NCBI GenBank assembly: GCA_021432655.1
Contig: MU271243.1
Coordinates: forward strand, 6,374-67,454
Direction: 5' to 3'
DNA: 61,081 bases
DNA from: Atractiella rhizophila
Lineage: Eukaryota
The notes below the pieces were generated by a model. The model saw only the letters and a list, made by a program, of their open reading frames with translations, ran no database searches and was not told where the DNA came from. Position 1 is the stretch's first letter, and each line of letters begins with the position of its first letter. The position numbers were made by a program, and so were the translations under genes. This document shows, in pieces, positions 3,451-61,081 of this stretch.

Positions 3451-3653
3451 ATGGACTCACTATTAATTGGCTCGTGTATGTTCGTTGGGTATTCGTGGAC
3501 TATCGCTTTATTCTGCTCCTGCAATCCATTATGCTTTCCTTGTTCAATTAAAGTTGCGGTGGCAGTTGACTTCCATTTCTTACTTCATGTTGACTGTTCA
3601 ACGCACTTTTCATACAATATGGGGATCAGGTCATTCTGCACAAGAATAACATG

Positions 3654-6053
<2,400 letters not shown>

Positions 6054-6820: not shown

Positions 6821-7346
6821 AGCAGGAACGAGATCCATGCATTCGACGTCTAACATGAAAGGGGACAGGATGGAAAGTAAACATTAGGATAAAGAAAGCC
6901 GAACCACTACCGTATATTTAATCCGTAGCCTAACGTAGTAATGAAAATATCTTGTCTTCTTTCCTTTTTGGCATGACCGTAAGACCCATCAGTAACGAAG
7001 GGGATATCTGGAACTTCGGAATGGATGTGGAGTAGTGAAATGTGACTGGACAAGAACGGGAGTCTGAATGGTGTTGTTGACAAAGCAGGAACGAGATCCA
7101 TGCATTCGACGTCTAACATGAAAGGGGACAGGATGGAAAGTAAACATTAGGATAAAGAAAGCCGAACCACTACCGTATATTTAATCCGTAGCCTAACGTA
7201 GTAATGAAAATATCTTGTCTTCTTTCCTTTTTGGCATGACCGTAAGACCCATCAGTAACGAAGGGGATATCTGGAACTTCGGAATGGATGTGGAGTAGTG
7301 AAATGTGACTGGACAAGAACGGGAGTCTGAATGGTGTTGTTGACAA
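6821..7346. repeat. 263-bp tandem duplication (6821-7083 / 7084-7346)
   Basis: AGCAGGAACGAGATCCATGC...GGTGTTGTTGACAA occurs twice head-to-tail; no differences seen by eye. Confidence 0.95.
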
Positions 7347-23500: not shown

Positions 23501-23989
23501 TTTACGGCCTGCTGATGCTACTCCCTCAGAGTAGCGCTTTCACTATGCTGCGAAATCGTCTCAATAGCGTCAGCGCGCTGGGCTTCCTCCATGCTGTTCC
23601 GCGAGGGTAAGCGGTGTCCCATCGAACGCGTAACGCAGCTGATCAAGCGGCGCAGACCTTACCCAACCCCCCAACCAACACCCAACTCACGGCCATCCAC
23701 TCTTCGTGGGAGAGAGGACCTCAAATGGAACGAACTACTTTCCCATTTCCGGACCGTGCAATTACGACATGAGCGCTCTCGTGGACGGTCGAATTACTAT
23801 GACAACGAGGTATACGAGCCTAGTTTTACAAGACAATACTCACAGATTCCCCTGGAAGGGCCGCCGCAGTTCAAAGCAGCCCCAACAAAGAAGAAGAGCG
23901 GGTCAACACCGCAGAAGAGTGAAGGGGCAGTAGGTAATTTCCTTTCCGCGATACAGCCCCGGAGGCGGTTTCCTAGCCTCAAACGCTAG
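17594..23989 (+). CDS. VAC14: Vac14 scaffold of the PI(3,5)P2/Fab1 complex; as assembled it contains a 2.86-kb internal tandem duplication
   Basis: [95 protein letters not shown]. Confidence 0.93.
18174..23898. repeat. About 2862-bp near-identical tandem duplication (18174-21035 / 21036-23898)
   Basis: Identical ORF sets at an offset of about 2862; junction ...AAGAAGAG-A-TATTGTACC; a handful of SNPs and indels between the copies. Confidence 0.97.
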
Positions 23990-42805: not shown

Positions 42806-44402
42806 TCAACGTGAGCGTTTAAGAACCTTCCATGTGAGTTCGACGAGGGCATCTCGCGCAGTACTTTGAGGTAGGGTATCCAAAATGCAACCTCTGGCCA
42901 ATGCCGCGTGGTCCTCTGCTAGCTCAAGGGTGCGCTTCGGCCCTGATGAGGCCAAGACCAGTTCTCGAGCCTATTATCGTCTTCAAAATTGCGAAAACAA
43001 TCGGTTAGAATCTCACCTTCTCTACGTCTCCTGGCTTACTAAATTTGCGTTCAACCATGGGTCCCAACTCTGCATATTCTTCCCATGCGAAGAGAACTGG
43101 TGCTGTGGCGAGGCCCAGCTTTAAGTCCGCACCGTCGGACGGCTTTCCCAGGTCGGCTGCTGAAGCAGTGTAATCCAACAAGTCGTCGATCAACTGTGAC
43201 CAATCTGCATCATCATCTTGTCACGAGAGCAACGTAGTCATACCTGAAATGCAATGCCCAAGTTCCTACCAAATGAAAAGGCAGCGTCCTTCACTGATTC
43301 CCCAGCCTCCCAGCCCTGTCGGAGACCGCATCCTCCTAGAACAACGGCAGATCGCGCGGACTTAGCTATCAACGAAGCAGTCTTGAGATATGTCTTTTCC
43401 ATATAGTCGTTAAATGTATCCGCTGTCAAGCCAACTGCAGTTGATCGAATAGGGATCATTGCCGAAAATTTGTCCACCCAGTTCTTTTCTTTGTGTGACT
43501 TCGCTGTATGTCCTTTCATTTGCATTACCTCACCTTCCACCAGATTGGCAATACAGCTCGCAATAAGTTCGACTACTTCATTACTCCCTAATCGACTCAG
43601 TGCCATCGAAGCTCGCGCCAACATGAAATCACCAGCAAGGATAGACAGTTTGTTGCCGAATAGTGAAGGAGACGACGGCAAATCTCTTCTTGTATCTGAC
43701 TGGTCAATGACATCGTCATGGAGTAAGCTCGCCACGTGAATCATTTCTATGATCTCCGCCAGCCGAAGTTGGGTTGGCAGGATAGTCGACGTTAACACTC
43801 CTGGTGTAAAAGTTGGGGGAACGGCTGGCTTGAGAGCAGCACTCGCCAGGGTTTGCACCGCATCCTTTGCGTGCTCAAAGGGATTCTTGCGCCAGAACGG
43901 ATCGGAAGGATTGACATCCGTCAGAACGGAATGTTCGGATAGTGGTGCATCGATCGATGTCTCGCCACGCGTTGCTTGCCGCTGCGACAGAGAGAAAAAG
44001 TGGGGTGACAGACCGTTCGTTGCTTGCGCTATGAGCAGAATTATCAATGGCCTGAAATGCTTCCCCTCCGCTACAAGAGTTTGTGAATGGATACTTAACA
44101 TCAGTGTAGAACACGCAGTGCTTACTCTGAAAGTAATACTTCGCAATGGTGTCCAGTGCAGGATGCCCGCTACCGAGAAGGGTGCGCACATTGGCCCGGA
44201 GTGAACCTAGCTCGTTGGCGACAAGGCTGAAGGGATCCAAAAATGAACTCTCTCCGGCATTCCTCCTCACTGAACTGGGACGATCGTACTTAGTGAGCGG
44301 GTTAAGGTGGTGGAGAGCATTGGACCAAGAGTGCCGCCGACAAATGACCTGAAGCTCTGTAGGTAATGTTTTGACAAGGTTGCGAGAGCGAGCGGATAAC
44401 AT
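42806..44402 (-). CDS. COQ1: Mitochondrial polyprenyl diphosphate synthase Coq1
   Basis: GKHFRP, EMIHVASLLHDDVID (FARM), GNKLSILAGDF, KTYLKTASL, GIAFQ|LIDDLLD (SARM), DLKLGLATAP. Confidence 0.95.
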
Positions 44403-44639
44403 GAAAGCTTGCCACAGGTCAGTTAGGTGAGAATACGCTGGACATGTGCATACAGGACGTGGATTAGGGAAATATGGCCCACCGCTTCGCCTTCACTCGT
44501 TTCGTTTCGCGTCGTGTTATGATGCAATGAACGAATTTGAAATGACAAGATTTGATTTTGAGGCTCAACAACTGCAAAATTGAAATGCAAAAAAGCAAAA
44601 CTCCCGGCAAAGTGCAACCCTTGAGTTCGTCCTCGCCGG

Positions 44640-46900
44640 AGAGATGCACAGATAGCATTGCCATTTTAGGACTCTGTGTTGGGAGGTGTGGAGTGTGGAA
44701 ATTATGTTGCAGGCTCACATCCTCCCGGTGAGTGTCATTGTTATGTTATGCAACACTTGCATGAGCAACAACCTTGGTTCTTCATCCTCAAGCGTTGGGC
44801 TAGTGTTTGTGGGGAATGAAATCTTTGGCACTTGCCCATAGTAGTAAATACTGTCTGGAAGCGGCCATATGTTGGCATACTTAAGCAATAAATTCCTGGT
44901 TATAAGGAGCAGCACTACCTTTGCAATCAGTGATGGGCTTTTAAGGGCTAAGTGCACTGTATTTGCTATTGCCTTCTTTGCTGCTTCCTTGTGCAGGTGT
45001 TCATACACAGCACAATCTACCATGACATTGATGGTTCCCCTGCCTCTCAGCACCATGTGCATCCTTTGCCCAACTGCACTGCTCTGGTCCCACAGTGAAG
45101 TATGGCCTGGCTCAACTGCTCTACAAAATGGCACCAGTGTTGTCATTATGTGAGGCATTGCCAAGCAAGCACTAACGTGTTGGAGTGAGATTTATCCCTC
45201 TAAGACAAAAGATTGATCACTTCAGTGTATTAACAGCGGTACAGTACAAAGATGTCCACATGCTATGAGCCATGCATGAGTATGTTATCATGCAGTTTTC
45301 ATCTAGTGTGGCAGGAGTAACGTACCATGATGTGTGGGTTCTTACAGTTGTTGTGTACAGAAGTCTATCTTGCAAGTGGAAGTTTTGTCACCGTGTGAAA
45401 AGGAGTTAAAATGATTCAGATTCTTCTGTACAAAGCCAGGCTGAGAAAACATGATTTCACCTTTTTTTGAGAGTTACAACTTAAAATGTGAAACCTGTCA
45501 TGATGATTCCCAATTGCAAAATCCTGATTATGTGTAGAACCGGAATATGTGTCCCTTAAGGTGCGGAGAACGTGTTTGGACATCAGAGCTGTCCATCCGC
45601 AGGCTCATTCGAATGCGACCTTCAATTTTCTTCAACCCGAACTTGCATTATTCCCTCAGACTCCAAGCCATATTCTCCCATATTCTCCCATACCGATTTC
45701 TGTGTTCAGCGAACAGACACCTGGATCCAGCAAACTGGTCACCACAAGGGTTTTGCACTCAATTTTGTGGAGATTTGCGCCACATCAGGCTGAAGTGGTC
45801 GACCTCTGACCTCGAACTCAGATATTGTTGTTGAATGCAAAAATGTAGTAATGATTAACAATTCATTTTGAATACAATTTAGGCTGATCCAGTGTCTAAG
45901 TATTAGGGCAAACACTATCTGCGGTCACTGATGGGCGATGCGTCTGTAGTGGAGGTAAACCTAAGAGAATAGTATGGCATGAGAAGACTAACCTGTAGTG
46001 GAGGTAAACCTAAGAGAATACTCTAAGGCCACCACCGCTACAACTCAATGTATATATACATATGTAAAGGCACTGCCATAAACTGTAACATATGTTTCTT
46101 GAAACATGTAAGATAACTAAATCAGGAAGGTAATAGAGGGAATACTCGCTGAGCAGTACTAGTGAGAAAGGATGATAAGGCGAAAATGGGGACAGTGCAG
46201 ACCGGCGAAATGTATAAGGTTTGCTATGCGGCGATTTGTGTGAGAAAGGGGAAAGCGGCGGACAGCGCGGGCATGAGCAAAGCGGCAATGGGTAGACACG
46301 TGATCCTATGACGTGGTGAAGTAGGTCAGGTGACTGCATATAGTGCATTTCGGTAATGCACAGGGGCAAGCCTGATACTAGGAAATGGAATGTGTCTGTC
46401 TCCGAAGCCAAAAAAAATAAACTAAAAGGTATAGGTATGTGGAAACTTGAAATGTAATCACATCTTCCGACATTAATACCCAATGTGTTTTCCTGTTAAG
46501 TAGCTTGAATGTAACGTATGTGATGCTGTTGTTGCCCTGTATAACGTGTATAACGTATTGGATTAACCAATGAGCTAAAATAACTAGTCATTTACCAACA
46601 CTGCAGATTAACCCTTTGTACCCAAGTTCAACGTAACAATGAGTGAACATTAAAAAAGTGGAGCCAAAAATACTTACCTTCATATATCAAAAATACAATT
46701 TGCTATTACTTCACCATTATCCATCACATTTCGGGAGTGGGTAGGGCGAACCCAAGGCTTTAGAGCCAGCTACAATGATGTATGATCTGTAGTAAGAATG
46801 AGCAAATATTAGAAAAAAGTGGAGGACAAAATATGCACCTTATGAACATCAAAACATGGAATTCCCCATTGCTTCACCATTATCCTTCGTATTTAGACGT
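44640..46900 (-). pseudogene. Degenerate, CpG-depleted relic (probably a decayed transposon or gene)
   Basis: Few CpG and abundant TG/CA, broken ORF fragments (44715-45164), remnant splice-like signals and degenerate repeats; no recognisable domain. Confidence 0.35.
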
Positions 46901-46949
46901 GAGTGCGGTAAGTGATGGGACTGAGGGGTAGATTTTACTACATATAATG

Positions 46950-47695
46950 TGTTAGTTATAGTGTGTTGTTTTGGTTACCTGCCTCTCATGACTCGTATGA
47001 GTCATCACTATGCCTGTAGTTTAGTTCTGCCTAGCACTGTTGGTGCTCACTATTGACCACCAACTACGGCTAGGTATGTCTCTCTATACTACACTAATGT
47101 CATTATTGTTGACCACCAACCACTCCTAGCCTTAGATCCTTACATGATAGTGAGAGCTGGTGGCTAGAATTACACTTTGCCACACCCATCACCTTCTCCC
47201 TCCTCCAGACCACATTTTCACACCTCCTGCACTCAAATTTCACTCAATTTTAATGATCAAGACAGATCTGTGATCCTCAGATGTTCCTTTACCACCTCAG
47301 GAGGTGTCTGCTTACTCAGGAACCAAGAAATATCGAAATCTATCCCCTTACCACCCACTTGCTGCCTCAAAACACACTTTGCCACCCTGGCCTCAAACTT
47401 TGACAAATTTGGACGTTATAGGGCTCATTTTGATCGTGAAACACTGCACTACAACTTTACTAGGAATCATCTTGGTCACAAGCGAAAATTTTGAGATAGC
47501 CACTCCATCACCTTCTTCATACCCCCAAAATGCAATTTTCGACTTTTTGAAGACAAATCTGGTCTGATCTGGACAATTTTATCGCCATCGCATTCACAAT
47601 GGGCTATTCTACTATCCTACAACAGATCATCTTGATCAGAAGAGTCAAAATTTCGAAATTTGCCACTATCACATCATCATCACATCATCCCCTAC
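46950..47695 (+). mobile_element. Family-B copia 5' LTR (about 46950-47144), degenerate PBS and leader, interrupted by element A
   Basis: TGTTAG...CCTTACA followed by TGATAGTGAGAGC (a variant of the element-A PBS). The LTR matches the complement of about 54310-54486, and leader 47576-47694 matches the complement of 59036-59150. Confidence 0.8.
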
Positions 47696-47916
47696 TGTTG
47701 GATTAGGTGTTATATTTTGTGGTCTTGTGTTGTGTGGTCAGCCATCTTTGTTGTGTTGGCTTCATTTCGGAATTTTAGCCCCCTAGGGGGCAGTTTAGGC
47801 GGTCATCATCTTTCACCGCCAATCTCTGTCCCCTAGGTATGTGTTTCCCTATCAATGTCATCATCTTTGACCACCAATCTCTGTCCCCTAGCTCCATCCA
47901 GCATCAGATTCTCTCA
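47696..47916 (+). repeat. 5' LTR of element A (221 bp, TG...CA)
   Basis: TGTTGGATTAGG...TTCTCTCA; homologous to 57800-58019 and to the reversed copies at 54797-55014 and 55816-56022. Confidence 0.93.
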
Positions 47917-47929
47917 TGGTAGCGAGAGC
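47917..47929 (+). promoter_or_regulatory. Primer-binding site (probably initiator tRNA-Met type)
   Basis: TGGTAGCGAGAGC directly after the LTR's terminal CA; TGGTAGC complements the GCUACCA 3' end of many initiator tRNAs. Confidence 0.7.
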
Positions 47930-48103
47930 GGTGGCTAGGGATTGACAGATCAGTTTTGCCACCCACTTGGCTGAAAATTTTGATCACTCAGCCATCCATT
48001 GTCCAATCGGTTTGAAACTTTGGGATCATAAACGAGACCCCCTTACACCTATATCCACCCATTTCTACGAAGATCGGACGATCCAAACTCGAATTTTATC
48101 ACC

Positions 48104-51100
48104 ATGGCTGAAGAAAGTAAAATTTTGATTACCCCCCTTGGAGAGAAGAACTATGGCACCTGGTGCATTGATATGCAGGCGGAATTGATGAGAAAGGGGT
48201 TATGGGAGATAGTCTCTGGAGTAGAGACCAAACCAGAAGGTTTGAAGGAGCAAAAACAGTGGCAAAAGAACAGCTCCAAAGTGGCTGGGATCCTGTTCCT
48301 TAGCCTAGAAGCGACCCAGAAAGCCCATGTGGTCTCTGTCCTTCAAGATCCAGTCAAGATCTGGTCTACCCTTCAAGAAATCCACCAACAGAAGCGCTCC
48401 TCAACTCGTTTCACTGCCCTCAACACCCTCCTTGCCCTCCAGAAGAAGGAAAGCGAATCCCTCATCACCCTGTGTGCCAGAAGCGACCAGCTACTACTGG
48501 ACTTCACCAACACACTGTCCAAGGACTACTCCCTTGATGATTTGAAGGAGGATCTTCAATCCTTCGCCCTCATTCGTTCCTTAGGCCCAGAATATGCCGG
48601 TTTCGTCCAGAACTTAACCCTGATGACATCCACTGACCTCCAATCGATCAAACAAGCATTCTACTCCATCCAAGCCACCAAGAACTCGGAGGAAGCCATC
48701 TCCAACACTCAAATGGCAAATCAGGTGTCCAGCAGCAACAGAGGACGAGGAGGATGGCATCCCAGAGGTGGCAGAGGTGGTGGAAGAGGAGGAACTGGAG
48801 ATTTTTCGCAATCTGTGTGCAACTACTGCCACAGGAAGGGCCACTTCGCCTCCCACTGCCCAGAAACTGCTTCTGGACGCAATAGGATCGAGTTGGAGAA
48901 GTACAGATCGAAGTATGGCAAGCTGGAGGAGGTGAAGGAAGCCAAAGTCGAAGGGGGAAAGCCAGAATTCGCTGGAGAGACAAGTTATGCAGCGGTAGAT
49001 GATACCATTAGTCGCCAGAAAGCTGGGACTGACTGGATTATCGATACAGGAGCAACTTCATCAATGACTCCACATTCCCACTTCTTCAAATCCTATCAAA
49101 AACACGTTGTACCCATCAGAGTTGCGAATGGAGAAGTGATCTGGTCTACTGGGATAGGAGAAGTGGTAATTGAGGCGAAATTGGAGGATAAAAAGTCGAA
49201 GGTCACCATTCACAATGTCCTACACGTCCCCAAATTGTGCAGCAATCTCCTATCTGTTTTCAAGCTCACAATCTTCGAAGGTGTAACTGTGACCATCATT
49301 GGGAGCAGAGTACGCTTCCTCAAGGCCGGAAATCCCTGTTTCACAGCGACAGTTGATCACAGGAGAGGAAGCATGAGTGCCATCATTGATGGAAGAACAC
49401 TCATGGCCTCAGAATCCGTTGCACACGCCTCCACTACCCCTCTAAACGCTTCCCTGTGGCATAGAAGACTTGCCCACTTGAATCATGAAGATATAAAGCG
49501 AATGCTGAAGAAAGGACTCGTGAAGGGAATGATTCTGGACTCAGAAGACGCTCCTGACCCCATCTGTGAGCCCTGCATCGCTGGGAAGCAGCACAGGATC
49601 TACAACAAGGCTGCAGAGAATAGGGAGACGGAAATTTTAGGGAGAATCAGCTCAGATCTTCATGGACCACTCCCAGTTGCTTCAAGAGAAGGATTTCGCT
49701 ATTGGGTGACATTTATAGACGAGGCAACAAATCACTGGACCATTGCCTTTCTGAAGAAGAAGTCAGAAGCCCCGCAGCGCTTTAAGGAGTATAAGGCGAT
49801 GATGGAAACCCTGACTGGAAGGAAGATCAAGAGATTCAGGGAGGACAAAGAAAGGGCCTATTCCTCAAAGGATTTCGATGAATACCTACGAAACCGTGGC
49901 ATCCAGCGCGAGAAAACCATCAGGAACTCTCCCCATCAAAATGAGAGAGCAGAGAGAGCAAACAGGACGATTCAAGAGGGTATGGTGGCGATACTGGAGG
50001 AATCTGGTTTGCCACTATTCCTCTGGCCCCACCTTGCTTCGGCTGTTGTTCACATCAGGAACAGATCCCCCTCTTCCTCCATCAATCACTCAATTCCCAA
50101 CACGAAATTAACAGGAGAACTGGTCGATATTTCGCGTTTTAGAGTCCTAGGCTGCACTGCCTATGTCCAAGTTCAGAAGGACGAAAGAAGCCACAGTCTG
50201 GCATCTCATACACGAAGATGTGCCTTTATAGGTTACTCTCCCAGCGCTAAAGGCTGGGATTTCTGGGATCCAGTATCTAAGAAGGTCTACACACGAGATA
50301 TTGCGAAATTTGACGAAAGGGAAATGCTTTGCAAAGTCAGGAGGGAGGAAAACGCGTTGGAACCGCCTCAGGGACCACTGGACGAGTGGAAAGAACGTCA
50401 GGATCAGGTGGGAGAAAGAAAGAGAGATGGTCCTGCCGTCCTTTTGGATTTTGGTGAAGATGAAGAGGAGGAGGACGTTTTGAAAGGTCAGGGAGAGCGG
50501 GAGAGACTCAGGGTGGAGTCTCCAAATCATTTTGAAGGATTAAGGGACGAAGGAGAAAATCAGGAAGCGGAGCAAGAGAGGGAAGAAGCACCAGACAGGC
50601 CACAGGCTGCTCCAGAGCGGCCAGTAACACCCCCACTACGTCTTGTTCCTCAGAGAGACCCTTGGACTGGACTAATGATGGTGGGAAGACAGACAGAATC
50701 GCCTGATCCTCTCCAAATGACGCCTCCTCATGCTATCCCTGCCCCTGCAGCTCCTCCACCAGTCGAAAGACGCTATCCTGAGCGACAGAGGAGACCACCA
50801 GTCGAGTTCTGGAAGGCACCCAAGCTGCCCCAACCACAGGAGGAGAGCTCTGAAGACGAGTTGGCAATGCTGGCTAAGGATTGTTGGATTATTACAGAGC
50901 CTGAAGCATTGGAGTGTGGTTTTATGGAGGTTACTGAACAGGCCATGGCTACAGGAGCGCAGGATCACATCCCCAAGACATATGCAGAAGCCATGAAGAC
51001 CCCAGAGGCGAAACAATGGCATGAGGCGACGGTCAAGGAGGTTCAAGCACACTTGGACAACAAGAGTTGGGTGCTAGTAAAGCCACCAAAGGGAGCAAAG

Positions 51101-52546
51101 GTCATTGGATCCAGATGGGTGTTTGCTATCAAGAAGAAGTCTGATGGCTCAATTGAGCGTTATAAGGCTAGATTCGTCATCAGGGGCTTCTCCCAACGTC
51201 CTGGCTTCGACTTCTTCGACACCTTTGCATCCACAGTGAAATGGGCCACCCTCAGAACCATCCTTTTGCTTGCCTGTGTCCTAGACATGGAACTGGAGTC
51301 TGTGGACATCTCAACCGCTTTCTTGAACGGAGAAATGGATGCAGAAGTCTATGCCAAGCAGCCAGAAGGTCACCCTCAAGGTCCTCCAGAATACGCTCTC
51401 AAACTCCTCAAAGCAATCTACGGCACCAGGCAAGGAGGACGTCAATGGCAGAAGAAACTGGACAAGGAGCTCGTGTCTATGGGCTTCACCAAAGTCAAGT
51501 GTGACAGCAGTCTCTGGATCTACTCAAATGGCGAAGTCAAGGTGATTGTGCCAGTCTTTGTGGACGATATAACGATTGCTAGCACGTCCAGAAGCGCTGT
51601 GGAGGAGTTCAAGAAGGAGTTGAGCAAGAGATTCAAGCTGAGGGACCTTGGAGCGACAGAATTTTTGCTTGGAGTGAGGATTAGGCGTGATAGGAAGCAG
51701 AAGAAGATGTGGTTGGATCAGGAGCAATACGTTAAGGACCTTCTCTCTCGACAGAAGATGGATAGCTGCAAGCCTGTGCTCACTCCCCTCAGCGTAGGCC
51801 ACGGCTTATCGAAGCAAGACTGTCCTCAGACCAAGGAAGATGAAGAAGAGATGCGAACCATTCCCTACAGTCATGTCGTCGGCTCTCTCATGTACCTTGC
51901 AGTTGCCACACGCCCTGACATCGCCCACACTGTTTCTGTCCTCGGAAAATTCCTCTCCAATCCAGGCAAGAGGCACTGGGAAGCTGCCAAACACCTCATG
52001 CGCTATCTCAAGGGCACTCAAGACATGTGCATCAAGTACTCTGCCACAGATTTTGATATCTCTCAACCATTCAAGGCATATTGTGATGCAGACTTTGCGG
52101 GTTGCAAGGATACTGGCCGGTCCACTGGAGGATACCTCTTAACTGTCGGAGGAGGAGCAGTTAGTTGGAGTAGCAAGTTGCAGTCTCTGGTGGCACTCTC
52201 AACCACAGAGGCAGAGTACATCTCAGGGGTATCAGCAGGACAAGAGGTGGTTTGGCTCAGAAGTCTTCTGCAAGAGATTGGCTTCGCTCCAAAAGGTTCG
52301 ACAACACTTTTCACGGACAGCAACAGCGCTTTGCAAGTCAGCAAGAATCCTGAGCACCATGGACGCATGAAGCACTTGGATCTTCGTTTCTACTGGCTCA
52401 GGGACACAGTAGAATCTGGACTCATCACCCCAGTCTTCTGCCCTGGCGAGTCTATGCCTGCAGACCTCCTCACCAAGGCTCTACCGGTTGCTGGAGTTGT
52501 AAAATTTCGAGAAATGATGGGTCTGCGCCCCTACCCAAGTGTATGA
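48104..52546 (+). CDS. Copia Gag-Pol polyprotein, 1480 aa (Gag, zinc knuckle, PR, IN, RT, RNase H)
   Basis: CNYCHRKGHFASHC; WIIDTGATSSM; LWHRRLAH...CEPC; SDLHGP...ERANR; RYKARFVIRGFSQ; VFVDD; YCDADFAG, STTEAEY, MPADLLTKAL. Integrase precedes RT, the copia order. Confidence 0.98.
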   Translation: MAEESKILITPLGEKNYGTWCIDMQAELMRKGLWEIVSGVETKPEGLKEQKQWQKNSSKVAGILFLSLEATQKAHVVSVLQDPVKIWSTLQEIHQQKRSSTRFTALNTLLALQKKESESLITLCARSDQLLLDFTNTLSKDYSLDDLKEDLQSFALIRSLGPEYAGFVQNLTLMTSTDLQSIKQAFYSIQATKNSEEAISNTQMANQVSSSNRGRGGWHPRGGRGGGRGGTGDFSQSVCNYCHRKGHFASHCPETASGRNRIELEKYRSKYGKLEEVKEAKVEGGKPEFAGETSYAAVDDTISRQKAGTDWIIDTGATSSMTPHSHFFKSYQKHVVPIRVANGEVIWSTGIGEVVIEAKLEDKKSKVTIHNVLHVPKLCSNLLSVFKLTIFEGVTVTIIGSRVRFLKAGNPCFTATVDHRRGSMSAIIDGRTLMASESVAHASTTPLNASLWHRRLAHLNHEDIKRMLKKGLVKGMILDSEDAPDPICEPCIAGKQHRIYNKAAENRETEILGRISSDLHGPLPVASREGFRYWVTFIDEATNHWTIAFLKKKSEAPQRFKEYKAMMETLTGRKIKRFREDKERAYSSKDFDEYLRNRGIQREKTIRNSPHQNERAERANRTIQEGMVAILEESGLPLFLWPHLASAVVHIRNRSPSSSINHSIPNTKLTGELVDISRFRVLGCTAYVQVQKDERSHSLASHTRRCAFIGYSPSAKGWDFWDPVSKKVYTRDIAKFDEREMLCKVRREENALEPPQGPLDEWKERQDQVGERKRDGPAVLLDFGEDEEEEDVLKGQGERERLRVESPNHFEGLRDEGENQEAEQEREEAPDRPQAAPERPVTPPLRLVPQRDPWTGLMMVGRQTESPDPLQMTPPHAIPAPAAPPPVERRYPERQRRPPVEFWKAPKLPQPQEESSEDELAMLAKDCWIITEPEALECGFMEVTEQAMATGAQDHIPKTYAEAMKTPEAKQWHEATVKEVQAHLDNKSWVLVKPPKGAKVIGSRWVFAIKKKSDGSIERYKARFVIRGFSQRPGFDFFDTFASTVKWATLRTILLLACVLDMELESVDISTAFLNGEMDAEVYAKQPEGHPQGPPEYALKLLKAIYGTRQGGRQWQKKLDKELVSMGFTKVKCDSSLWIYSNGEVKVIVPVFVDDITIASTSRSAVEEFKKELSKRFKLRDLGATEFLLGVRIRRDRKQKKMWLDQEQYVKDLLSRQKMDSCKPVLTPLSVGHGLSKQDCPQTKEDEEEMRTIPYSHVVGSLMYLAVATRPDIAHTVSVLGKFLSNPGKRHWEAAKHLMRYLKGTQDMCIKYSATDFDISQPFKAYCDADFAGCKDTGRSTGGYLLTVGGGAVSWSSKLQSLVALSTTEAEYISGVSAGQEVVWLRSLLQEIGFAPKGSTTLFTDSNSALQVSKNPEHHGRMKHLDLRFYWLRDTVESGLITPVFCPGESMPADLLTKALPVAGVVKFREMMGLRPYPSV

Positions 52547-52784
52547 GGCAGTTATGGGGCGCAATAAAACTCTGTCCTCCTTCTGGGGGTTATAAGACGC
52601 CGCTCTAAACGGTACGAGGATCTCTCTACTGGTTTTAGGCAGTCAACTAATATGTTTTCTTTTTGCCATGCTATTTCATGCTGTCTTTATTCGGTGGGAC
52701 CTTTGTTCGGTGGCTATCTTGGATGGTTCTTGGATTTGGTGGGAGCCTCAAGAGGTGGCTGCCCAGGTGGGAGTGTTGGATTAG

Positions 52785-55700
52785 CACAGAACCTGTACCT
52801 CAACCTCAGTCACCTATAGAGATGCCGTAAGGAGTTGCCGCTATACCTACGTCTCCAGATACGTGTTGTTGGTCTTCCAGTAGGTGTCCCAGGAGGTCTC
52901 ATGCAAGAGTTCAATTAGTTCCGATAGATACCGTGTTCCGTTCCTCCTGCAGTTACCGTCTTCTTTGAGCTATTCCTTGAACAGCTATACCCTAAATTGT
53001 TCTAGTTCTCGCTGAGATCAGACACCTAAATGAGCTTCCCCCTGTAGTTTCATGAACAGGGCCAGAAACACCTACTATAATGCTAGCGATCGTGTAGTTT
53101 CCCACGACATCTCCTGAAGTTCTCCCTCAATCCCTTCGCTAAGTTTGAGTCTCTGGAACTTGGTTGCCAATTTAGGATGTACCCCAAGCATAATCCTCTC
53201 TATCTTTCGCTTGTTACTACACCAACCTGAGTTGTTGTCATCCAATTCCTGGAGGGATCTTGCGTTTGATCTACCTGGTAACGTTGGGACTGGTGGTTGA
53301 GGAGAGTTGGATCCTGTGCACAAAAGGAGTCGTTCGGATCGTAGAAACTGGTGTTTGTTTCCTTGTTGTTCTTCTTTAGGTCGTAGTTAGGTAGAGTGTC
53401 CGTTGCAGCAACCGAAGGTACTTGGTGAACTGGTAGAAGGTTCAATCCAAGAGGTAGTATAGCGAGTACGTCAGGTATTCCGGAACCTTTCATGGAGACT
53501 GATTGAGGACTCCTTTCGTTAACAGGTTACCAAACAACGGAGCAGATATTTGCAGTGGGTTATCGCTTTAGGAAGAGAACTTCGTTGACCCTCGCCAGGT
53601 ACTTCTAGACTCGAGTAGGAAGGATTTTAAAGGCAGAGGGATAAGAGACGTCGGAACAACATCTAGGATACGACGAAGGGTCGCTACGTCCCGAGTGTCT
53701 ACCCCAGTCCTCGCAGAAGACTCAGGTCTTAGTAAGGAAAGTGCTTCGGGAAAGAAGTCGTTCGTGTAATGTAGAAGTCGTAAGTTGACCCGTTCTTAGA
53801 GGACACGGTGTCCCTTCGCAAATCTTCTCATCACCGATGCGTAGGCGTTCCAGGTTTAGGGGAGAAGTTCTGTCGTCCTCGCGAGAGGTCAATAGGTTCT
53901 TAGTACTCGTGAGTACCAGCTTACCTTGTAGACCTGAAGCGAAAATCACCTAGTCCCTACAAGGTCTCTACTCGTTCTAGTCATGAGACGACAGGTCCAC
54001 AGTTATACGGTCGTCTGGAGGAGTGGTTCCGTGAAGGTCATCGGTCGCACCTGTTCAAAACTCAATAGTCTAACGCTGTTGGATGGGTTCACAGACTCCG
54101 TGAATACCCCGCGTTATTTTAAGGAATAGGAGGAGACACCGGAGTATTCTGCGGCGAAGTTCGCCATGGTCCTGGAAAGGTGAAGAGGTAATCGTTTTGA
54201 TTCTACGAAAGTTGCACTATAGCTATTGTAAACTTCTTAACACCACCCTCTCAGTACCTAAATCACCGTCGTAGCTCTTCGACGGGTCGTCAGGGTCGAT
54301 CAACACCGCTGATTACCAAGTAGATGGCGAGTACTGAGCATACTGAGGTCAGTTGATACCGAAAAGACGGATCCTGACAACCCGATAATAAGTGGGGTTG
54401 GTCGAAGGTCATGCAGCTAGATATGAAGAGGTTACACGAATAACGCTGGTGTTGGTCGAGGATCGTCACCTCTCACGGGAAAATGTGACTAGTGTGTGAC
54501 TCTTTTTAGAGCACGGAGGAGCAGGTGGACACGGTGTTCTCTGTGGTTGGAGGACTAGGTCGACTGACGAGGAGGACGGTTACTCACACTTCTCCATAGG
54601 AGGCTCATCTGGACGGTCACGGAACCTAGACGTTTCAGGTCTTGTTATACGGAACTTACCGACTCTCTAGTCAGCTTCAGTACTCCGTCTATATGAGCTA
54701 CGTGTAAGACCCGGAACCTCTACTCTCGTCTTCCTCAAACCGTCGAAGGAGTCACTGAGAACGTTCCTACCTTTCCATTAAAAGGCTCCTGTCACAACTC
54801 TCTTAGACTACGACCTACCTCGATCCCCTGTCTCTAACCACCAGTTTCTACTAATATAACTATCCTTTTGTGTATGGATCCCCTGTCTCTAACCACCAGT
54901 TTCTACTACTGGCGGATTTGACGGGGGATCCCCCGATTTTGAGGCTTCACTTCGTTTGTTTTGTCTCCACCGACTGGTGTGTTTGTATTGTCTTTATATA
55001 GTGGATTAGGTTGTGAGGGTGGACCGGTCGGCGGAGAACTTCGAGGGTGGTTTAAGCACTTGGTAGTTCTTATTGGTAGGTTACTTCGAGGGTGGCTTAC
55101 TTCCGTAGTACTTCACTGTAGTATGTTTCTTTTGTATAATCAATTTACAGATTTTGGTCATCTGTCTAGGAGCATGGCGAATTTCGCCGCAGAATATTGG
55201 GGGTCTTCCTCCTGTCTCAAACTAACGCGGGGTATTGACGAAGTATGTGAACCCAGTCCCCGCGTCTGGTTAGTAAAGAGCCCTAAAATATTGAGGTCGT
55301 TGGTTTCCGGAACTACTCCTCCAGACGTCGTTATCTGAGCGGTCCCGTCTTCCGACCCGACTACTCAGGTCTAAGATGACACAGGGACTCGGTCATCTTC
55401 GCTTCTAGGTCCACGAAGTACGCAGGTACCACGAGTCCTAAGAACGACTGAACGTTTCGCGACAACGATAGGCACTTCGTTCACAACAGCTTGGAAAACC
55501 TCGCTTCGGTTAGAGAACGTCTTCTGAAGAGTCGGTTTGGTGGAGAACAGGACGACTATGGGGACTCTACATGAGACGGAGGCACCAACTCTCACGGTGG
55601 TCTCTGACGTTGAACGATAGAGGTTGATTTACGTTCTCAATTCTTCATAGGAGGTCACCTGGTCGGTCATAGGAAGTTGGGCGTTTCAGACGTAGTGTTA

Positions 55701-56022
55701 GACGGAATGACTAACTCTCTATAGTTCTTAGACTCCGTCTCATGAGCTACTTGTACGGGACGCACGAGATCTCTACGCGTCCTCTACGAAACCGTCGACG
55801 GGTCCACGGAGAACTACTCTCTTAGACTACGACCTACCTCGATCCCCTGTCTCTAACCACCAGTTTCTACTACTGTAACTATCCTTTTGTGTATGGATCC
55901 CCTGTCTCTAACCACCAGTTTCTACTACTGGCGGATTTGACGGGGGATCCCCCGATTTTGAGGCTTCACTTCGTTTGTTTTGTCTCCACCGACTGGTGTG
56001 TTTGTATTGTCTTTATATTGTG
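52785..56022. other. Mirror-oriented block 1 (reversed but not complemented copia sequence)
   Basis: The complement read left-to-right from 52785 gives VLDMELESVDISTAFLNGDMDAEVYAQQPEGHPQGPPEY... (family-B RT). 54797-55014 and 55816-56022 read backwards give family-A LTRs, and 55015-55815 read backwards gives the A-type RT/RNase H tail, 3' UTR and PPT. Confidence 0.97.
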
Positions 56023-56270
56023 NNNNNNNNNNNNNNNNNNNNNNNNNNNNNNNNNNNNNNNNNNNNNNNNNNNNNNNNNNNNNNNNNNNNNNNNNNNNNN
56101 NNNNNNNNNNNNNNNNNNNNNNNNNNNNNNNNNNNNNNNNNNNNNNNNNNNNNNNNNNNNNNNNNNNNNNNNNNNNNNNNNNNNNNNNNNNNNNNNNNNN
56201 NNNNNNNNNNNNNNNNNNNNNNNNNNNNNNNNNNNNNNNNNNNNNNNNNNNNNNNNNNNNNNNNNNNNNN
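56023..56270. other. Assembly gap (248 N)
   Basis: Run of N. Confidence 1.
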
Positions 56271-58019
56271 CCACAGTGAAATGGGCCACCCTCAGAACCA
56301 TCCTTTTGCTTGCCTGTGTCCTAGACATGGAACTGGAGTCTGTGGACATCTCAACCGCTTTCTTGAACGGAGAAATGGATGCAGAAGTCTATGCCAAGCA
56401 GCCAGAAGGTCACCCTCAAGGTCCTCCAGAATACGCTCTCAAACTCCTCAAAGCAATCTACGGCACCAGGCAAGGAGGACGTCAATGGCAGAAGAAACTG
56501 GACAAGGAGCTCGTGTCTATGGGCTTCACCAAAGTCAAGTGTGACAGCAGTCTCTGGATCTACTCAAATGGCGAAGTCAAGGTGATTGTGCCAGTCTTTG
56601 TGGACGATATAACGATTGCTAGCACATCCAGAAGCGCTGTGGAGGAGTTCAAGAAGGAGTTGAGCAAGAGATTCAAGCTGAGGGACCTTGGAGCGACAGA
56701 ATTTTTGCTTGGAGTGAGGATTAGGCGTGATAGGAAGCAGAAGAAGATGTGGTTGGATCAAGAGCAATACGTTAAGGACCTTCTCTCTCGACAGAAGATG
56801 GATGCGGCAAGCCTGTGCTCACTCCCCTCAGTGTAGGCAACGGTTTATCGAAGCAAGACTGTCCTCAAACCAAGGAAGACGAAGAAGAGATGCGAACCAT
56901 TCCCTACAGTCATGTCGTTGGTTCTCTAATGTACCTTGCAGTTGCAACACGCCCTGACATCGCCCACACTGTCTCTGTCCTCGGAAAATTCCTCTCCAAT
57001 CCAGGCAAGAGGCACTGGGAAGCTGCCAAACACCTCATGCGCTATCTCAAAGGCACTCAGGACATGTGCATCGAGTACTCTGCCTCAGACTTCGATATCT
57101 CTCAGCCATTTAAGGCATATTGTGATGCAGACTTTGCGGGATGCAAGGATACTGGCAGGTCTACTGGAGGATACCTCTTAACTATTGGGGGAGGAGGAGT
57201 CAGCTGGAGCAGCAAGTTGCAGTCTCTTGTGGCACTATCAACCACGGAGGCAGAGTATATCTCAGGGGTATCAGTAGGACAAGAGGTGGTTTGGCTTAGG
57301 AATCTTCTCCAAGAGATTGGCTTCACTCCAAAGGGACCAACAACGCTTTACACGGACAGCAACAGCGCCTTGCAAGTCAGCAAGAATCCGGAGCACCACG
57401 GGTGCATGAAGCACTTGGATCTTCGCTTCTACTGGCTCAGGGACACAGTAGAATCTGGACTCATCGCCCCAGTCTTCTGTCCTGGCGAGTCGATGCCTGC
57501 AGACCTCCTCACCAAGGCTTTACCAGTTGCTGGAGTCTCCAAATTCCGTGAAATGATGGGTCTGCGCCCCTACCCAAGTGTATGAGGCAGTTATGGGGTG
57601 CAATAAAATTCTGTCCTCCTTCTGGGGGTTATAAGACGCCGCTCTAAGCGGTACGAGGATCTCTCTAGTGGTTTTAGACAATCAATTAACATGTCTTCTT
57701 TGTGTCATACTATTCAACGCTGTTTACATTCGGTGGGAGCTCTCTTGGACGATTATTGGATTTGGTGGGAGCTTCAAGAGGCGACTGCCCAGGTGGGAGT
57801 GTTGGATTAACTGCTAAATTTCATGGTGTTGTCTTTGTGTGGTCAGCCACCTTTGCTGTGTTTACTCACTTCGTAGTTTTTCTCCCTAGGGGGCAGTATT
57901 GGTGGTCATCATCTTTGACCACCAACTCCTGTCCCCTAGGTATGTGTTTCCTCATCAATCCAATCATCTTTGACCACCAACTCCTGTCCCCTAGCTCCAT
58001 CCAGTGTCTATTTCTCTCA
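56271..58019 (+). mobile_element. 3' part of a second family-A copia copy (frameshifted RT-RNase H, PPT, 3' LTR 57800-58019)
   Basis: Homologous to 51231-52784; 1-nt deletion near 56804; AGGTGGGAG followed by TGTTGGATTAA...TTCTCTCA. Confidence 0.95.
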
Positions 58020-59035
58020 CCTTAACATACTGTTCTTGACCCAACCACATCATTCTTCGCTTTTTATCCCTCCTAATACGAACCCCAAGTAGGAATTCCG
58101 TTGGTCCAAGGTCTCTGAGTTTGAATCGCTTCCACAACTCCCTCTTGAAGTCCTCTACAGCACCCTTTGATGTGCTAGCGATCGTAATATCATCCACAAA
58201 GACAGGGACAAGTACTTTGATGTCCCCCTTTGAGTAAATCCACAGACTAGAGTCACTCTTGATCTTCTTAAATCCCATAGCAACAAGTTCCTTATCGAGT
58301 TTCTTCTGCCATTGACGTCCTCCTTGCCTTGTGCCATAGATGGCCTTGATTAACTTCAGAACATACTCTGGAGGACCCTGTGGATGACCTTCTGGTTGTT
58401 GTGCATAGACCTCTGCATCCATATCACCGTTAGGGAATGCCGTAGAGATGTCCACTGACTCCAACTCCATGTCCAAGACACAAGCGAGCGAAAGAATCGT
58501 CCTAAGTGTCGCCCATTTGACCGTAGATGCGAAAGTATCAAAGTAGTCGAATCCACGGCGTTGAGAGAACCCCTTGATGACGAATCTGGCCTTGAAGCGC
58601 TCAATAGAACCATCCGACTTCTTCTTAACCGCAAACACCCATCGAGAACCAACGATTTTTGCACCTTTAGGCGGTTTGACCAGAATCCAACTCTTGTTGT
58701 CCAAGTGAGATTGAATCTCCTTCACTGTCGCTTCATGCCATTCCTTCACATTAGGGCTTGCCATCGCTCTTGAATATGACTGAGGGACCTCTACTCCTGT
58801 TGCTGCACTCATGGCATGCTCTGTGACAAGCATATAGCCGTATTCCATCGCCTCTGGCTCAGTGAGGATGTCACATTCCTTTACCAACATCCCAAGCTCG
58901 TCTGTTGACCCTTCGTCGTTGTTTTGAGGTGCTTCTGGGGTCCTAAATCTGTCTACAGGTCGTCCTCTACTCGTAGAATAAATTCTTGAAGGCCTGTTGA
59001 CAGGGGGAGGTGTCGAAGCTGCTGGAGGAGGTTGA
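58020..59035 (-). mobile_element. Family-B copia pol fragment (IN-RT linker and RT), cut by the family-A LTR
   Basis: ORF 57991-58890: ERFKARFVIKGFSQ, VDISTAFPNG, VPVFVDDIT; ends at GQEQYVK, where the LTR begins. Confidence 0.95.
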
Positions 59036-61081
59036 TAAAATAGCGGTAACCTAAGTGTTATCCGATAAGATGATAGGATGTTGTCTAGTGGAACTAGTCT
59101 TCTCAGTTTTAAAGCTTTAAACGGTGGTAGTGTAGTAGTGTAGTCGGGGATAGTGGGAAAGAGGTAGTGTAGTCCCCTAGAATCCTGAGTTGGTGTCCCA
59201 GATCCTCCTACAAACCCTACCTTTACCGAGAATTACCCAACCTTAAACGACCCGACTTGTCAGAACGACGTCGTTTACTACAGTGATACGGAGTTCGTTC
59301 GGAACTCACCTATCGTCTTTGACCACGTTGAGTAGTGGTGTACAGAGGACGGTAGCGGTCAGATACGAACGTCTTGGAGTAGTCTTGTTCCGAAATGGGG
59401 ATGGTCCTCATCGTTTTCAGGCTCTTTTACTAAACCTCACGACACGGTGATGGTCGTTCTAGGTACTTCGGTTCAATCCCCCTCGTTCTTCTTGTGATGG
59501 TAATGGTAGACCGTCTATAGGTTGTGCGGGGGAATTCGCGATGTTGTTGGAGAGATGGTCAGAAGTTCGAGTGTTAGTTGTTCCCTTACTCCCAGAGGTA
59601 ACGGTTCGATGTTGTTCGACAGAGATAACCCACCCTCGAAAGAAGGTCCTAGTTTTTGAGACGTACCATGACGGTGAACCACCCTCGATGTTCTCTACCT
59701 TCGGTTCCGCCCTTATGAGTTAATCCCTTGTGTGAAGGACGAGAGTCTTAACACGACCTTTACGTCGGTGTGACGGATACCTACGGAGTGACGCCTTAAA
59801 GTCTTGTGATCCCCTGTAGCATTAATCCTCCTGTAGTTCGTAGACTTCTGGTTGTTTGAGACAGTTGATCCATACTCTAAGGGCTCGTTACGTAGTCGAC
59901 CCTTGGTTGTATCCGAGACAGTTGTTCGAGTCGTCTCTGGTCCGTCTTCCTTCAGTGAGTCCCATCTTAGTCGAGTCTGGACGTACCTGGAGAAGGTCAG
60001 TGAAGGTCTCTTCCTATAGCTATAACCCAGTGGAAGTAACTGCTTCGTTGTTTAGTAACGTGTTAACGGAAGGAGTTCTTCTTTAGTCTCTCGGGTCTTG
60101 AGAAGTTCTGAAAGTTCTTAACCCATCTCTTACAGTGACCCTTCTTCTAGTTCTTCAAATCTCTCCTGTTCCTTCCGCGAATAAGGAGGTTTCTTAAGCT
60201 AGTTATGGAGTTCCGGACACCATAGGTCGCGCTTGTCTACTAGTCCTTGAGAGGAGTGGTCTTACCGTCCCGTCTTGCTCGGTTATCCTGCTAAGTCCTC
60301 TGATACCAGCGGTACAAACTTCTTAGACCTGAAGGAGAGAAAGAGACCGGTAGATAGCGAAGTCGTCAGCAGGTGTAAGCGTTGTCTAGAGGGAGTCGAA
60401 GCTAGTTGGTACGATAAGGGGTGTGCTTTGAGTGACCTGAATGAGGTTGGTAGAGTTCTAAGTCTTAGTAACCTACGTGACGGATGCAAGTTCAAGTCTT
60501 CCTACTTTCCGGTGTGTCGAATCCTAGAGTGTGAGCTTTTACGCGTAAATATCCGATAAGGGAACGTCGCTTTCCCACCCTCAAGACCCTAGGACAACCC
60601 TTCTTCCAGATGTGAGCTCTACAACGGTCTAAACTACTCTCTCTCTACGAGACGTTCCAGTCCTTCCTCTTCTAATGCAACCTTCTTGGTGTCCCTGGTG
60701 AACTGCTCACCTTCCTCGCAGTCCTAGTCCACCCTCTACCTGTCTTATCACGAGGTCGGCGAGGAGGCCGGTCCTAAAGCGAGCTGGTGTTACTGCTTCT
60801 TCTTCTACCTACCTAAGTTGTCGGTCCTCGTGGAGGATGTGGAGTCCTTGTTGGGTCTGGCGAACCTTATGTCAGAGGTTTGTCTAAAGTCGGGGAAGTC
60901 CAACTTCTTCTTCTTCTACTTCTTTCTCTTGTCAGAGGTCTGGGGTACGTCGAGCATGGACTTGCCGGATTTTGTGGGGGTGGAGCAGTCATGTGGTACG
61001 TCTCTCTAGGAACCTGTCCTCAAGTGTACGGATCTAAGGGTCTCAGAGGTCTAGGGGAGGTCTACGCGGGTTGTTGCGGTC
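59036..61081. other. Mirror-oriented block 2 (family-B leader, degraded protease region, integrase)
   Basis: The complement read left-to-right from about 59960 gives GRISSDLHGPLPVTSREGYRYWVTFIDEATNHCTIAFLKKKSE...SPHQNGRAERANRTIQE...KGWEFWDP; 59036-59150 is the complement of 47576-47694. Confidence 0.97.

Follow-up and report, generated by a model that had tools for sequence, protein, structure and literature searches.

What is a string of more than three kilobases which, as deposited, resembles nothing around it on either strand, but becomes recognisable retrotransposon DNA once its letters are read backwards? The question is raised by positions 52785-56022 of the window, by which is meant the whole stretch of 61,081 nucleotides of Atractiella rhizophila DNA analysed here. 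The original prediction, made from the letters of this stretch, held that the block is a mirror string, reversed without being complemented, and that a wrong-polarity extension or gap-filling step was far likelier to have produced it than real mirror DNA. The present analysis supports that preference, and two further lines of evidence, a second block and a homology-free polarity test, agree with it. With a probability of about 94%, both blocks are string-handling errors in which an overhang was appended with the wrong polarity at a right-hand contig end, and are not the organism's DNA. The features first needed are the following.

52785 to 56022, no strand: mirror block 1, 3238 nt of copia DNA reversed and not complemented, with the N gap as its right border
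56023 to 56270, no strand: run of 248 N, the only one in the window, a contig boundary adjoining block 1
59037 to 61081, no strand: mirror block 2, about 2045 nt, the reversed continuation of a minus-strand copia copy, ending on the window's last base

Block 1 as written gives no blastn HSP to the rest of the window on either strand (E<=1e-5). Plain reversal of the same letters gives 24 HSPs to neighbouring Ty1/copia elements with identities of up to 94%, among them alignments of 1036 nt (83.6%), 825 nt (89.1%) and 465 nt (94.2%). At the protein level the query was the polyprotein of the intact neighbouring element (ORF 48104-52546, 1480 aa, hereafter pol). It has no tblastn match in the six frames of the block as written and nine in the reversed block, a search that had been suggested alongside the original prediction; the best match, with an E-value of 6.7e-66, shows 73.7% identity across 156 aa and extends over pol 1059-1213. 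The predicted coordinates are exact, and standard homology tools do, as foreseen, miss the block. The peptides quoted in the prediction occur in the complement-only reading alone (frame 3 from 52787) and are absent from the other three orientations, and its quoted 18-mer is identical to pol 1059-1076. The further statement that the block has no meaningful ORF needs a qualification, the longest stop-free run being 131 aa as written or reverse-complemented and 147 aa when reversed or complemented. The orientations of block 1 are separated by homology, not by ORF length alone. As written, a single ORF of 100 aa or more (54961-55338) is contained entirely within a block, and Pfam gives no match for it. 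Both blocks have a GC content of 0.46-0.50 with small skews.

Blocks taken at random do not as a rule behave in this way. Nineteen of 20 random control blocks of 3238 nt gave no mirror HSP once reversed. The twentieth overlaps the copia element and gave eight, seven of which lie in block 1 and one outside it. Across the window there are 50 mirror HSPs, 42 with a partner in block 1 and eight with a partner in 59033-60765; each mirror match outside block 1 has its partner in the latter interval.

An ordinary inversion or a misoriented contig is ruled out for block 1 by the same absence of HSPs on either strand and of six-frame tblastn matches. Such rearrangements likewise place sequence in the wrong orientation beside a gap in repeat-rich DNA; they still match their paralogues on the other strand, however, whereas the mirror blocks do not.

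The left border of block 1 falls within an element, referred to here as E, whose correctly written part is organised as follows.

47696 to 52784, plus strand: correctly written part of E, with 5' LTR, PBS-like site, polyprotein ORF, purine tract and 11 bases of the 3' LTR
47696 to 47916, plus strand: 5' LTR with TG..CA ends
from 47917, plus strand: putative PBS-like site TGGTAGCGAGAGC, directly after the 5' LTR
48104 to 52546, plus strand: polyprotein ORF without an internal stop
before the 3' LTR, plus strand: purine tract GGTGGGAG, a polypurine tract
52774 to 52784, plus strand: opening 11 nt of the 3' LTR, correctly written

The polyprotein of E carries the Pfam domains Retrotran_gag_2 (residues 24-185), rve (514-609) and RVT_2 (986-1229, E 7e-57), along with gag_pre-integrs and others. 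By domain order and LTR structure, both the blocks and their surroundings consist of Ty1/copia LTR retrotransposon DNA, with copia-type gag followed by integrase and RVT_2 along the polyprotein and with LTRs ending in TG..CA. Nothing unusual was found in the copia element itself. In-place reversal of block 1 produces TGTTGGATTAGGTGTTATATTT at 52774, a 22-mer which occurs elsewhere only at 47696, the start of the 5' LTR, so that the predicted rebuilding of the LTR start is borne out. The restored 3' LTR agrees with the 5' LTR at 207 of 222 aligned columns, the two LTRs measure 221 and 218 nt, and both have TG..CA ends. After correction E is an otherwise complete element at 47696-52991, with its 3' LTR spanning the border 52784/52785. 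Corrected E differs from Ty1/copia in having no 5-bp target-site duplication around it, the flanks reading CCTAC on the left and TCAAG on the right. On the right it is bordered by a further partial copia copy.

The remainder of block 1 can be resolved into further copia pieces. Positions as written equal 108807 minus the corrected position, and none of these pieces is given a strand.

55815 to 56022: mirrored rest of the 3' LTR of E, 208 nt, which after reversal directly follows 52784
54797 to 55814: mirrored partial copy made up of an LTR and the 3' portion of the internal region, beyond RVT_2 (pol about 1278-1480)
53407 to 54793: mirrored mosaic, in which four diverged copia fragments abut one another with their order and orientation mixed
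52785 to 53319: mirrored reverse-transcriptase fragment, with the complement-only reading VLDMELES...VPVFVDDIT

Positions 1-208 of the reversed block match 47707-47917 at 92.4% identity (blastn). The partial copy, at corrected positions 52993-54010, matches E 4272-5296 at 91.0%, and its tblastn matches, which fall in two frames, span pol 1278-1478 and pol 1331-1460. The mosaic consists of fragments corresponding to E 4241-4501, 1084-1443, 4935-4577 and 1736-2156, with identities of 71-85%, and is rich in gaps (4-5 openings per 100 nt). The reverse-transcriptase fragment, when reversed, is 94.2% identical to 58020-58481. Block 1 thus remains odd even when corrected, with short abutting fragments in a mosaic and an element E that has no target-site duplication; the appended sequence may, on this account, be unfaithful in ways other than its polarity.

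The N run which adjoins block 1 on the right had been noted in the original prediction. Beyond it, two copia copies of normal polarity precede the second block.

56271 to 58019, plus strand: partial copia copy, normal polarity, equivalent to E 3536-5296 at 92.0%, from the reverse transcriptase to the 3' LTR
58020 to 59036, minus strand: copia copy of a diverged subfamily, normal polarity, running from pol 1211 to 899 and then on to the border

By tblastn the first copy corresponds to pol 1044-1480, and the second to pol 899-1211 at 58959-58021 with 76.4% identity. From about 59037 the sequence is again mirrored. This second block is absent from the original prediction, which had proposed looking through the assembly for other mirror blocks beside gaps; within the window there is this one more (about 59037-61081). 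A match to pol 288-874 is found only in its reversed string (59242-61071, tblastn). Reversal of the block in place merges it with the minus-strand copy to the left, giving a single HSP over pol 487-1211 that scores 989-1010 bits, where the string as written reaches 514. A continuous minus-strand polyprotein then crosses 59036/59037 in an open frame of 728 codons. The left border was placed at 59037 ±4 from a contig of the public run X3, which fits up to 59036, and from the start of the complement match at 59033. Thirty borders were tested by tblastn, and all ten in frame with 59037 scored 989-1010 bits.

A third line of evidence needs no homologue. The dinucleotide-polarity score compares the frequency of every dinucleotide with that of its reverse as a log ratio and sums these values cumulatively, and the model was trained on the gene-rich positions 1-44000 only. 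The sign of the score flips in the two blocks only, each of which departs from the null by over 10 sd. For block 1 the sum is -72.4, compared with a minimum of 27.7, a mean of 58.6 and an sd of 12.5 in 496 windows of equal length; for block 2 it is -63.9, compared with a minimum of 16.8, a mean of 37.1 and an sd of 9.9 in 508 windows. Kilobase windows that fall within a block range from -20 to -32 (k=2). Left of 52785, by comparison, all 104 such windows are positive with k=2, as are 103 of the 104 when k=4 is used, and over 56271-59036, between the blocks, the slope is +17.6 per kb. The one weak candidate for a third mirror block, 46001-47000, was rejected, being only slightly negative with k=4 (-2.2) and positive with k=2 (+2.0). 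The change-point for block 1 falls at 52780; the score locates this first border to within 5 nt and the others to within about 150 nt. The CA/AC, TA/AT and CG/GC ratios are inverted in both blocks, CG/GC being 2.16 and 2.47 there as against 0.53-0.60 in normal copia DNA.

Contigs from public runs provide some information on how the family is written elsewhere. The informative ones stem from different copies of a multi-copy element, or from its relatives, and where legible they show homologous DNA in un-mirrored polarity, which is the natural polarity of the family and not of this locus. Beyond 59036 the X3 contig has a loose end that corresponds to the plain reversal of 61081-61054 with a score of 22 of 30, the other three orientations scoring 12-13 of 30. 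Behind 47694, X4 and X2 contigs have loose ends that agree with 59152-59181 in its complement-only reading, scoring 26 and 22 of 30, respectively, against 11-14 of 30 in the other orientations. Contig depth was taken over 44082-61081 as written, at 90% likeness and in 30 bins. The runs X1 and X2, which derive from one sample, give depth in 22 of the 30 bins, and their eight empty bins all lie within the blocks (five in 53154-55988, three in 59391-61081); an uncovered stretch proves nothing without a joining contig, and as none is listed the empty bins are not counted as evidence. The other runs have depth in fewer bins (12/30 for X4, 10/30 for X3). Word shares of 46100-56022 are 0.30 and 0.29 in the best runs and 0.06 in X3-X5, so that none holds half, and they are not block-specific.

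The original prediction had also described the interior of block 1 as indel-rich and resembling long reads. This description is weakly supported, gaps of 1-2 nt being about twice as frequent in pairs involving the blocks as in normal pairs of like identity. Block 1 against E has 14 gaps in 1033 columns and a normal pair of like identity 11 in 1768, whilst block 2 against E has 27 in 896 columns and a normal pair 11 in 891; few are of homopolymer type (3/14 and 5/27, respectively). Against it stands corrected block 2, since raw long-read noise would not allow a frame of 728 codons. As the gaps in block 2 sit in a frame that stays open, most of them can be put down to noise in an alignment of 75% identity.

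How might such blocks have arisen? Each combines a mirror relation to copia DNA, borders that become seamless on reversal, a position at a contig end and an inverted k-mer polarity. Both left borders lie within continuous sequence. On the right, block 1 stops at the N run that begins at 56023 and block 2 at the window's last base, 61081, which is probably the end of the record, judging solely by its non-round length. Thus both of the two visible right-hand contig ends are mirrored; the left end of the second contig (56271), the only internal left end visible, is not. The location of both blocks at right-hand contig ends points to a step that appends overhangs, and we infer that the error originated at extension or merging. 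A candidate step would be one that extends a contig into a gap or beyond the end of a scaffold, or that merges it with a read or contig overlapping it. In one form an overhang needing no change would have been reversed; in another, an overhang from a minus-strand piece would have been complemented and not reversed. With either form the true sequence would be the block reversed in place.

The best surviving alternative to such a program error, though an improbable one, is a slip in hand-editing, file conversion or submission, for instance a plain 'reverse' applied to selected ranges. It would be expected to leave identical mirror strings, and nothing in the window points to a particular program. 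Against it, there are two separate blocks whose left borders, both inside a repeat, are placed exactly or to within a few bases, and whose right borders both coincide with a contig end, a pattern that looks rule-driven. Far less probable, to the point of being very hard to credit, is that the organism's genome physically contains the mirror strings, through some parallel-polarity copying, or in-situ flipping, acting on retrotransposon DNA. At this locus the deposited string meets no direct contradiction. All known DNA synthesis is templated antiparallel, however, so that copies are reverse complements and never mirror strings, and we know of no polymerase or repair pathway that makes a parallel copy. 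The borders, moreover, are an N gap and the window's end, which are properties of an assembly and not of a chromosome; reversal exactly restores an LTR and an ORF, which would demand a flip in situ that left no trace; and the public contigs, where readable, show the family in normal polarity only. Chance or low-complexity resemblance can be dismissed as practically nil in view of HSPs of up to 1036 nt with E down to 0.0, the protein match of E 6.7e-66, the 19 silent reversed controls and a twentieth that overlaps the copia element itself, and polarity scores of the blocks that depart from the null by over 10 sd.

The blocks can be compared with known mirror strings. Natural mirror repeats (H-DNA or triplex tracts) share with the blocks a mirror symmetry on one strand. 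Such repeats are tens of bases long and purine- or pyrimidine-rich, with adjacent arms. A natural mirror repeat is rejected for the blocks, which measure 3238 and about 2045 nt, consist of complex sequence from coding regions and LTRs, and have their paralogue partners kilobases away. Another likeness is found in deliberate decoys, the reversed, non-complemented genomes used in repeat and HMM searches to estimate false discoveries. These result from the same string operation and, like the blocks, keep base composition whilst destroying all homology; there the decoys serve as a control held apart from the data, whereas the blocks stand unmarked inside deposited sequence. A literature search found no report of reversed, non-complemented blocks as an assembly error.

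The result provides no new biology, and its value lies in data quality. About 5.3 kb of the 61-kb window (8.6%) is a string that is impossible as written, and the error breaks both an otherwise complete retrotransposon and a reading frame of 728 codons. Since reversal destroys homology, the blocks look novel to BLAST-type tools and are invisible to BLAST, to RepeatMasker-type masking and to gene-homology checks; they would count as unique, unannotated sequence and can yield orphan ORFs. With two of two visible right-hand ends affected, the error may be systematic at such ends and may recur at many contig ends, in this assembly and in others produced by that step. Whole assemblies could be screened cheaply with the dinucleotide-polarity score.

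The original prediction had taken the block at 52785-56022 (block 1) for copia DNA reversed without being complemented. In blastn comparisons with the rest of the window (E<=1e-5) in all four string orientations, block 1 as written gave no match on either strand, which covers the reverse complement. Its plain reversal gave 24 HSPs, including the following.

Blastn HSPs between reversed block 1 and the rest of the window
57006-58019: 1036 nt, 83.6%
51967-52784: 825 nt, 89.1%
58020-58481: 465 nt, 94.2%

The polyprotein of the ORF at 48104-52546 (positions in it are given as pol) behaved likewise in tblastn, with zero matches to block 1 as written and nine HSPs to its reversal, the best (E 6.7e-66) covering pol 1059-1213. 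Two peptides previously reported from the block appear in the complement-only reading alone, in frame 3 from 52787, and the first of them is identical to pol 1059-1076. Once block 1 is reversed in place, the 22-mer TGTTGGATTAGGTGTTATATTT arises at 52774; it occurs elsewhere only at 47696, the start of the 5' LTR, and the rebuilt 3' LTR is identical to the 5' LTR in 207 of 222 columns. The right edge of the block adjoins the sole N run of the window, 56023-56270. These results confirm the assignment to mirrored copia DNA to the base.

As a control, the same reversal and search were applied to 20 blocks of 3238 nt drawn at random from the left part of the window. No mirror HSPs came from 19 of them; the twentieth, which overlaps the copia element, yielded eight, seven within block 1 and one outside. 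A search of the reversed window against the window returned 50 mirror HSPs. In 42 of them one partner, and only one, lies in block 1; the remaining eight (four reciprocal pairs) each have one partner in 59033-60765, and uncovered a second mirrored block that the original prediction had not listed with this finding.

In this second block (block 2), pol 288-874 is detected at 59242-61071 in the reversed string only. A contig from one public sequencing run (X3) agrees with the window to 59036 and then carries 30 further letters, which match the plain reversal of 61081 down to 61054 with a score of 22 of 30 (12-13 in the other three orientations). Together these results have block 2 start at about 59037 and extend to the window's final base. 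To its left, at 58021-58959, lies a diverged minus-strand copia copy of normal polarity, running from pol 1211 down to 899 (76.4%), and corrected block 2 continues this copy. Reversal of 59037-61081 in place turns the 514-bit match to pol 899-1211 into one HSP spanning pol 487-1211 (993 bits), and opens a 728-codon frame across the 59036/59037 border. Of 30 left borders tried, the 10 that share this frame are equivalent in tblastn, which therefore sets the border modulo 3 only. The X3 contig (59036) and a complement match starting at 59033 set it at 59037 +-4.

A homology-free test gave the same picture. Reversal exchanges each dinucleotide with its mirror, such that the excess of CA over AC, AT over TA and GC over CG must flip in a mirrored block. 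The training set of a strand-symmetrised polarity model was limited to 1-44000, a gene-rich stretch with no copia coding match. Left of 52785, this model called 104/104 kb-windows normal at k=2 (mean score +18.1, sd 6.5) and 103/104 at k=4, the exception being 46001-47000 at -2.2. Kb-windows within the two blocks scored -20 to -32. Cumulative polarity reaches a maximum at 52780, a minimum at 55928 and a second maximum at 58893, with no recovery thereafter. The polarity sum of block 1 is -72.4, against a minimum of 27.7 in 496 windows of the same length (mean 58.6, sd 12.5); that of block 2 is -63.9, against a minimum of 16.8 in 508 windows (mean 37.1, sd 9.9). CG/GC is 2.16 and 2.47 in the blocks versus 0.53-0.60 in normal-polarity copia DNA, which is CpG-poor. 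The window holds no third mirrored stretch. The CpG depletion of the copia DNA at 44001-52784 and 56271-59036, relative to a CG/GC of 0.92 in gene-rich 1-44000, suggests cytosine-methylation-linked or RIP-like mutation of these repeats.

Correction of block 1 yields a complete element at 47696-52991 (element E), in which TGGTAGCGAGAGC immediately follows the 5' LTR, a purine tract precedes the 3' LTR, and both LTRs have TG..CA ends. Its polyprotein carries Retrotran_gag_2, gag_pre-integrs, rve and RVT_2 (E 7e-57) domains, and this gag/integrase/RVT_2 set identifies a Ty1/copia element. A 5-bp target-site duplication is absent (CCTAC on the left, TCAAG on the right), the right flank being another partial copia copy.

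Element E and the sequence that follows it in corrected block 1
48104-52546: polyprotein ORF, 1480 aa, without internal stops
Directly after element E: partial copia copy, element positions 4272-5296, 91%
Then, in mixed order and orientation: four short abutting copia fragments, 71-85%
Last, minus strand: RT fragment, 94% identical to 58020-58481

The minus-strand RT that closes the corrected sequence left of the N gap (55488-56022) breaks off at element position 3581, and the contig right of the gap (56271-56781) starts in plus-strand RT at 3536. The two RT arms thus stand head to head and are merely 78% alike, whilst the contig ends nearly coincide in element position.

Once complemented, the end of corrected block 2 matches the flank that hosts element E (47573-47694). 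Contigs of two further runs, X4 and X2, have loose ends behind 47694 that carry the empty-site form of this repeat, which stands complemented in block 2. Against the complement-only reading of 59152-59181, these ends score 26 and 22 of 30, respectively (11-14 in the other orientations), and therefore real DNA of independent runs has the family in un-mirrored polarity. Element E (flank 47573-47695) is inserted within this other repeat, also present at 59033-59181. Just upstream, contigs of X2 and of X1, a run from the same sample, show several joints skipping 83-551 nt at 45857-47144, and summed depth over 45783-47483 reaches ~124,000 versus ~390 in unique sequence, which marks a further repeat of high copy number that varies in length.

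The left 44 kb holds ordinary eukaryotic genes in normal polarity, among them those for an AAA ATPase, BOP1, a chitin synthase (Chitin_synth_2, 4.6e-123) and a polyprenyl synthetase. A Pfam family was found in 6 of the 12 ORFs scanned, and none for the single scanned ORF inside block 1. The gene set is fungus-like, and to its right the window turns into a transposon-rich tail, in which the assembly broke. Two tandem direct duplications lie in the left part. Copies 18174-21034 and 21036-23898, one base apart, differ by 7 mismatches and 2 gaps over 2863 nt (99.7% identity) and could be a recent gene duplication or, given the string-handling errors of the assembly, an unmerged overlap. Copies 6821-7083 and 7084-7346 (263 nt, 100% identical) may likewise be either a true duplication or an overlap that was duplicated when sequences were joined.

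The two blocks have much in common: each is a mirror string with a gapless left border, whose left flank becomes seamless after in-place reversal. Both right borders are contig ends: block 1 stops at the N run, and block 2 at the window's last base, inferred to be the record end from the non-round length of the window. The sole visible internal left contig end, at 56271, has normal polarity. The artefact reading preferred in the original prediction is supported and extended by a second case, and we put the probability that both blocks are a software or string artefact at about 0.94. That the polarity error arose specifically during extension or merging at contig ends is probable. The simplest process giving exactly this pattern would append an overhang to a right-hand contig end and write it in the wrong polarity. 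The extension string might be assembled in the wrong order, or the overhang of a minus-strand read or contig might be complemented and left unreversed; complementing a reverse complement gives the plain reversal of the original string. The earlier description of the interior as indel-rich and long-read-like is weakly supported: short gaps are about twice as frequent in pairs involving the blocks, and tblastn reads the frameshifted partial copy in block 1 in two frames, but the open frame of block 2 is long.

A slip during manual editing could have produced such strings but fits two rule-like blocks poorly. Real mirror DNA in the organism is exceedingly improbable: it requires a copying process of parallel polarity, and no polymerase is known to copy in this way; such DNA would, moreover, have to end exactly at assembly gaps. 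Ordinary misorientation leaves reverse-complement homology intact, unlike the mirror blocks, and is ruled out for block 1 by the lack of a blastn match on either strand.

Natural mirror repeats are short purine-rich tracts, from which the mirror blocks differ. Full-text literature searches found no reports of reversed, non-complemented blocks in assemblies. The same string operation is applied deliberately in decoy genomes for false-discovery estimates (bioRxiv 10.64898/2026.04.14.718546).

The mirror blocks are not a real biological feature. The finding matters for data quality. Impossible strings make up 5.3 kb of the 61 kb; standard tools call them novel, and a simple polarity score picks them up.
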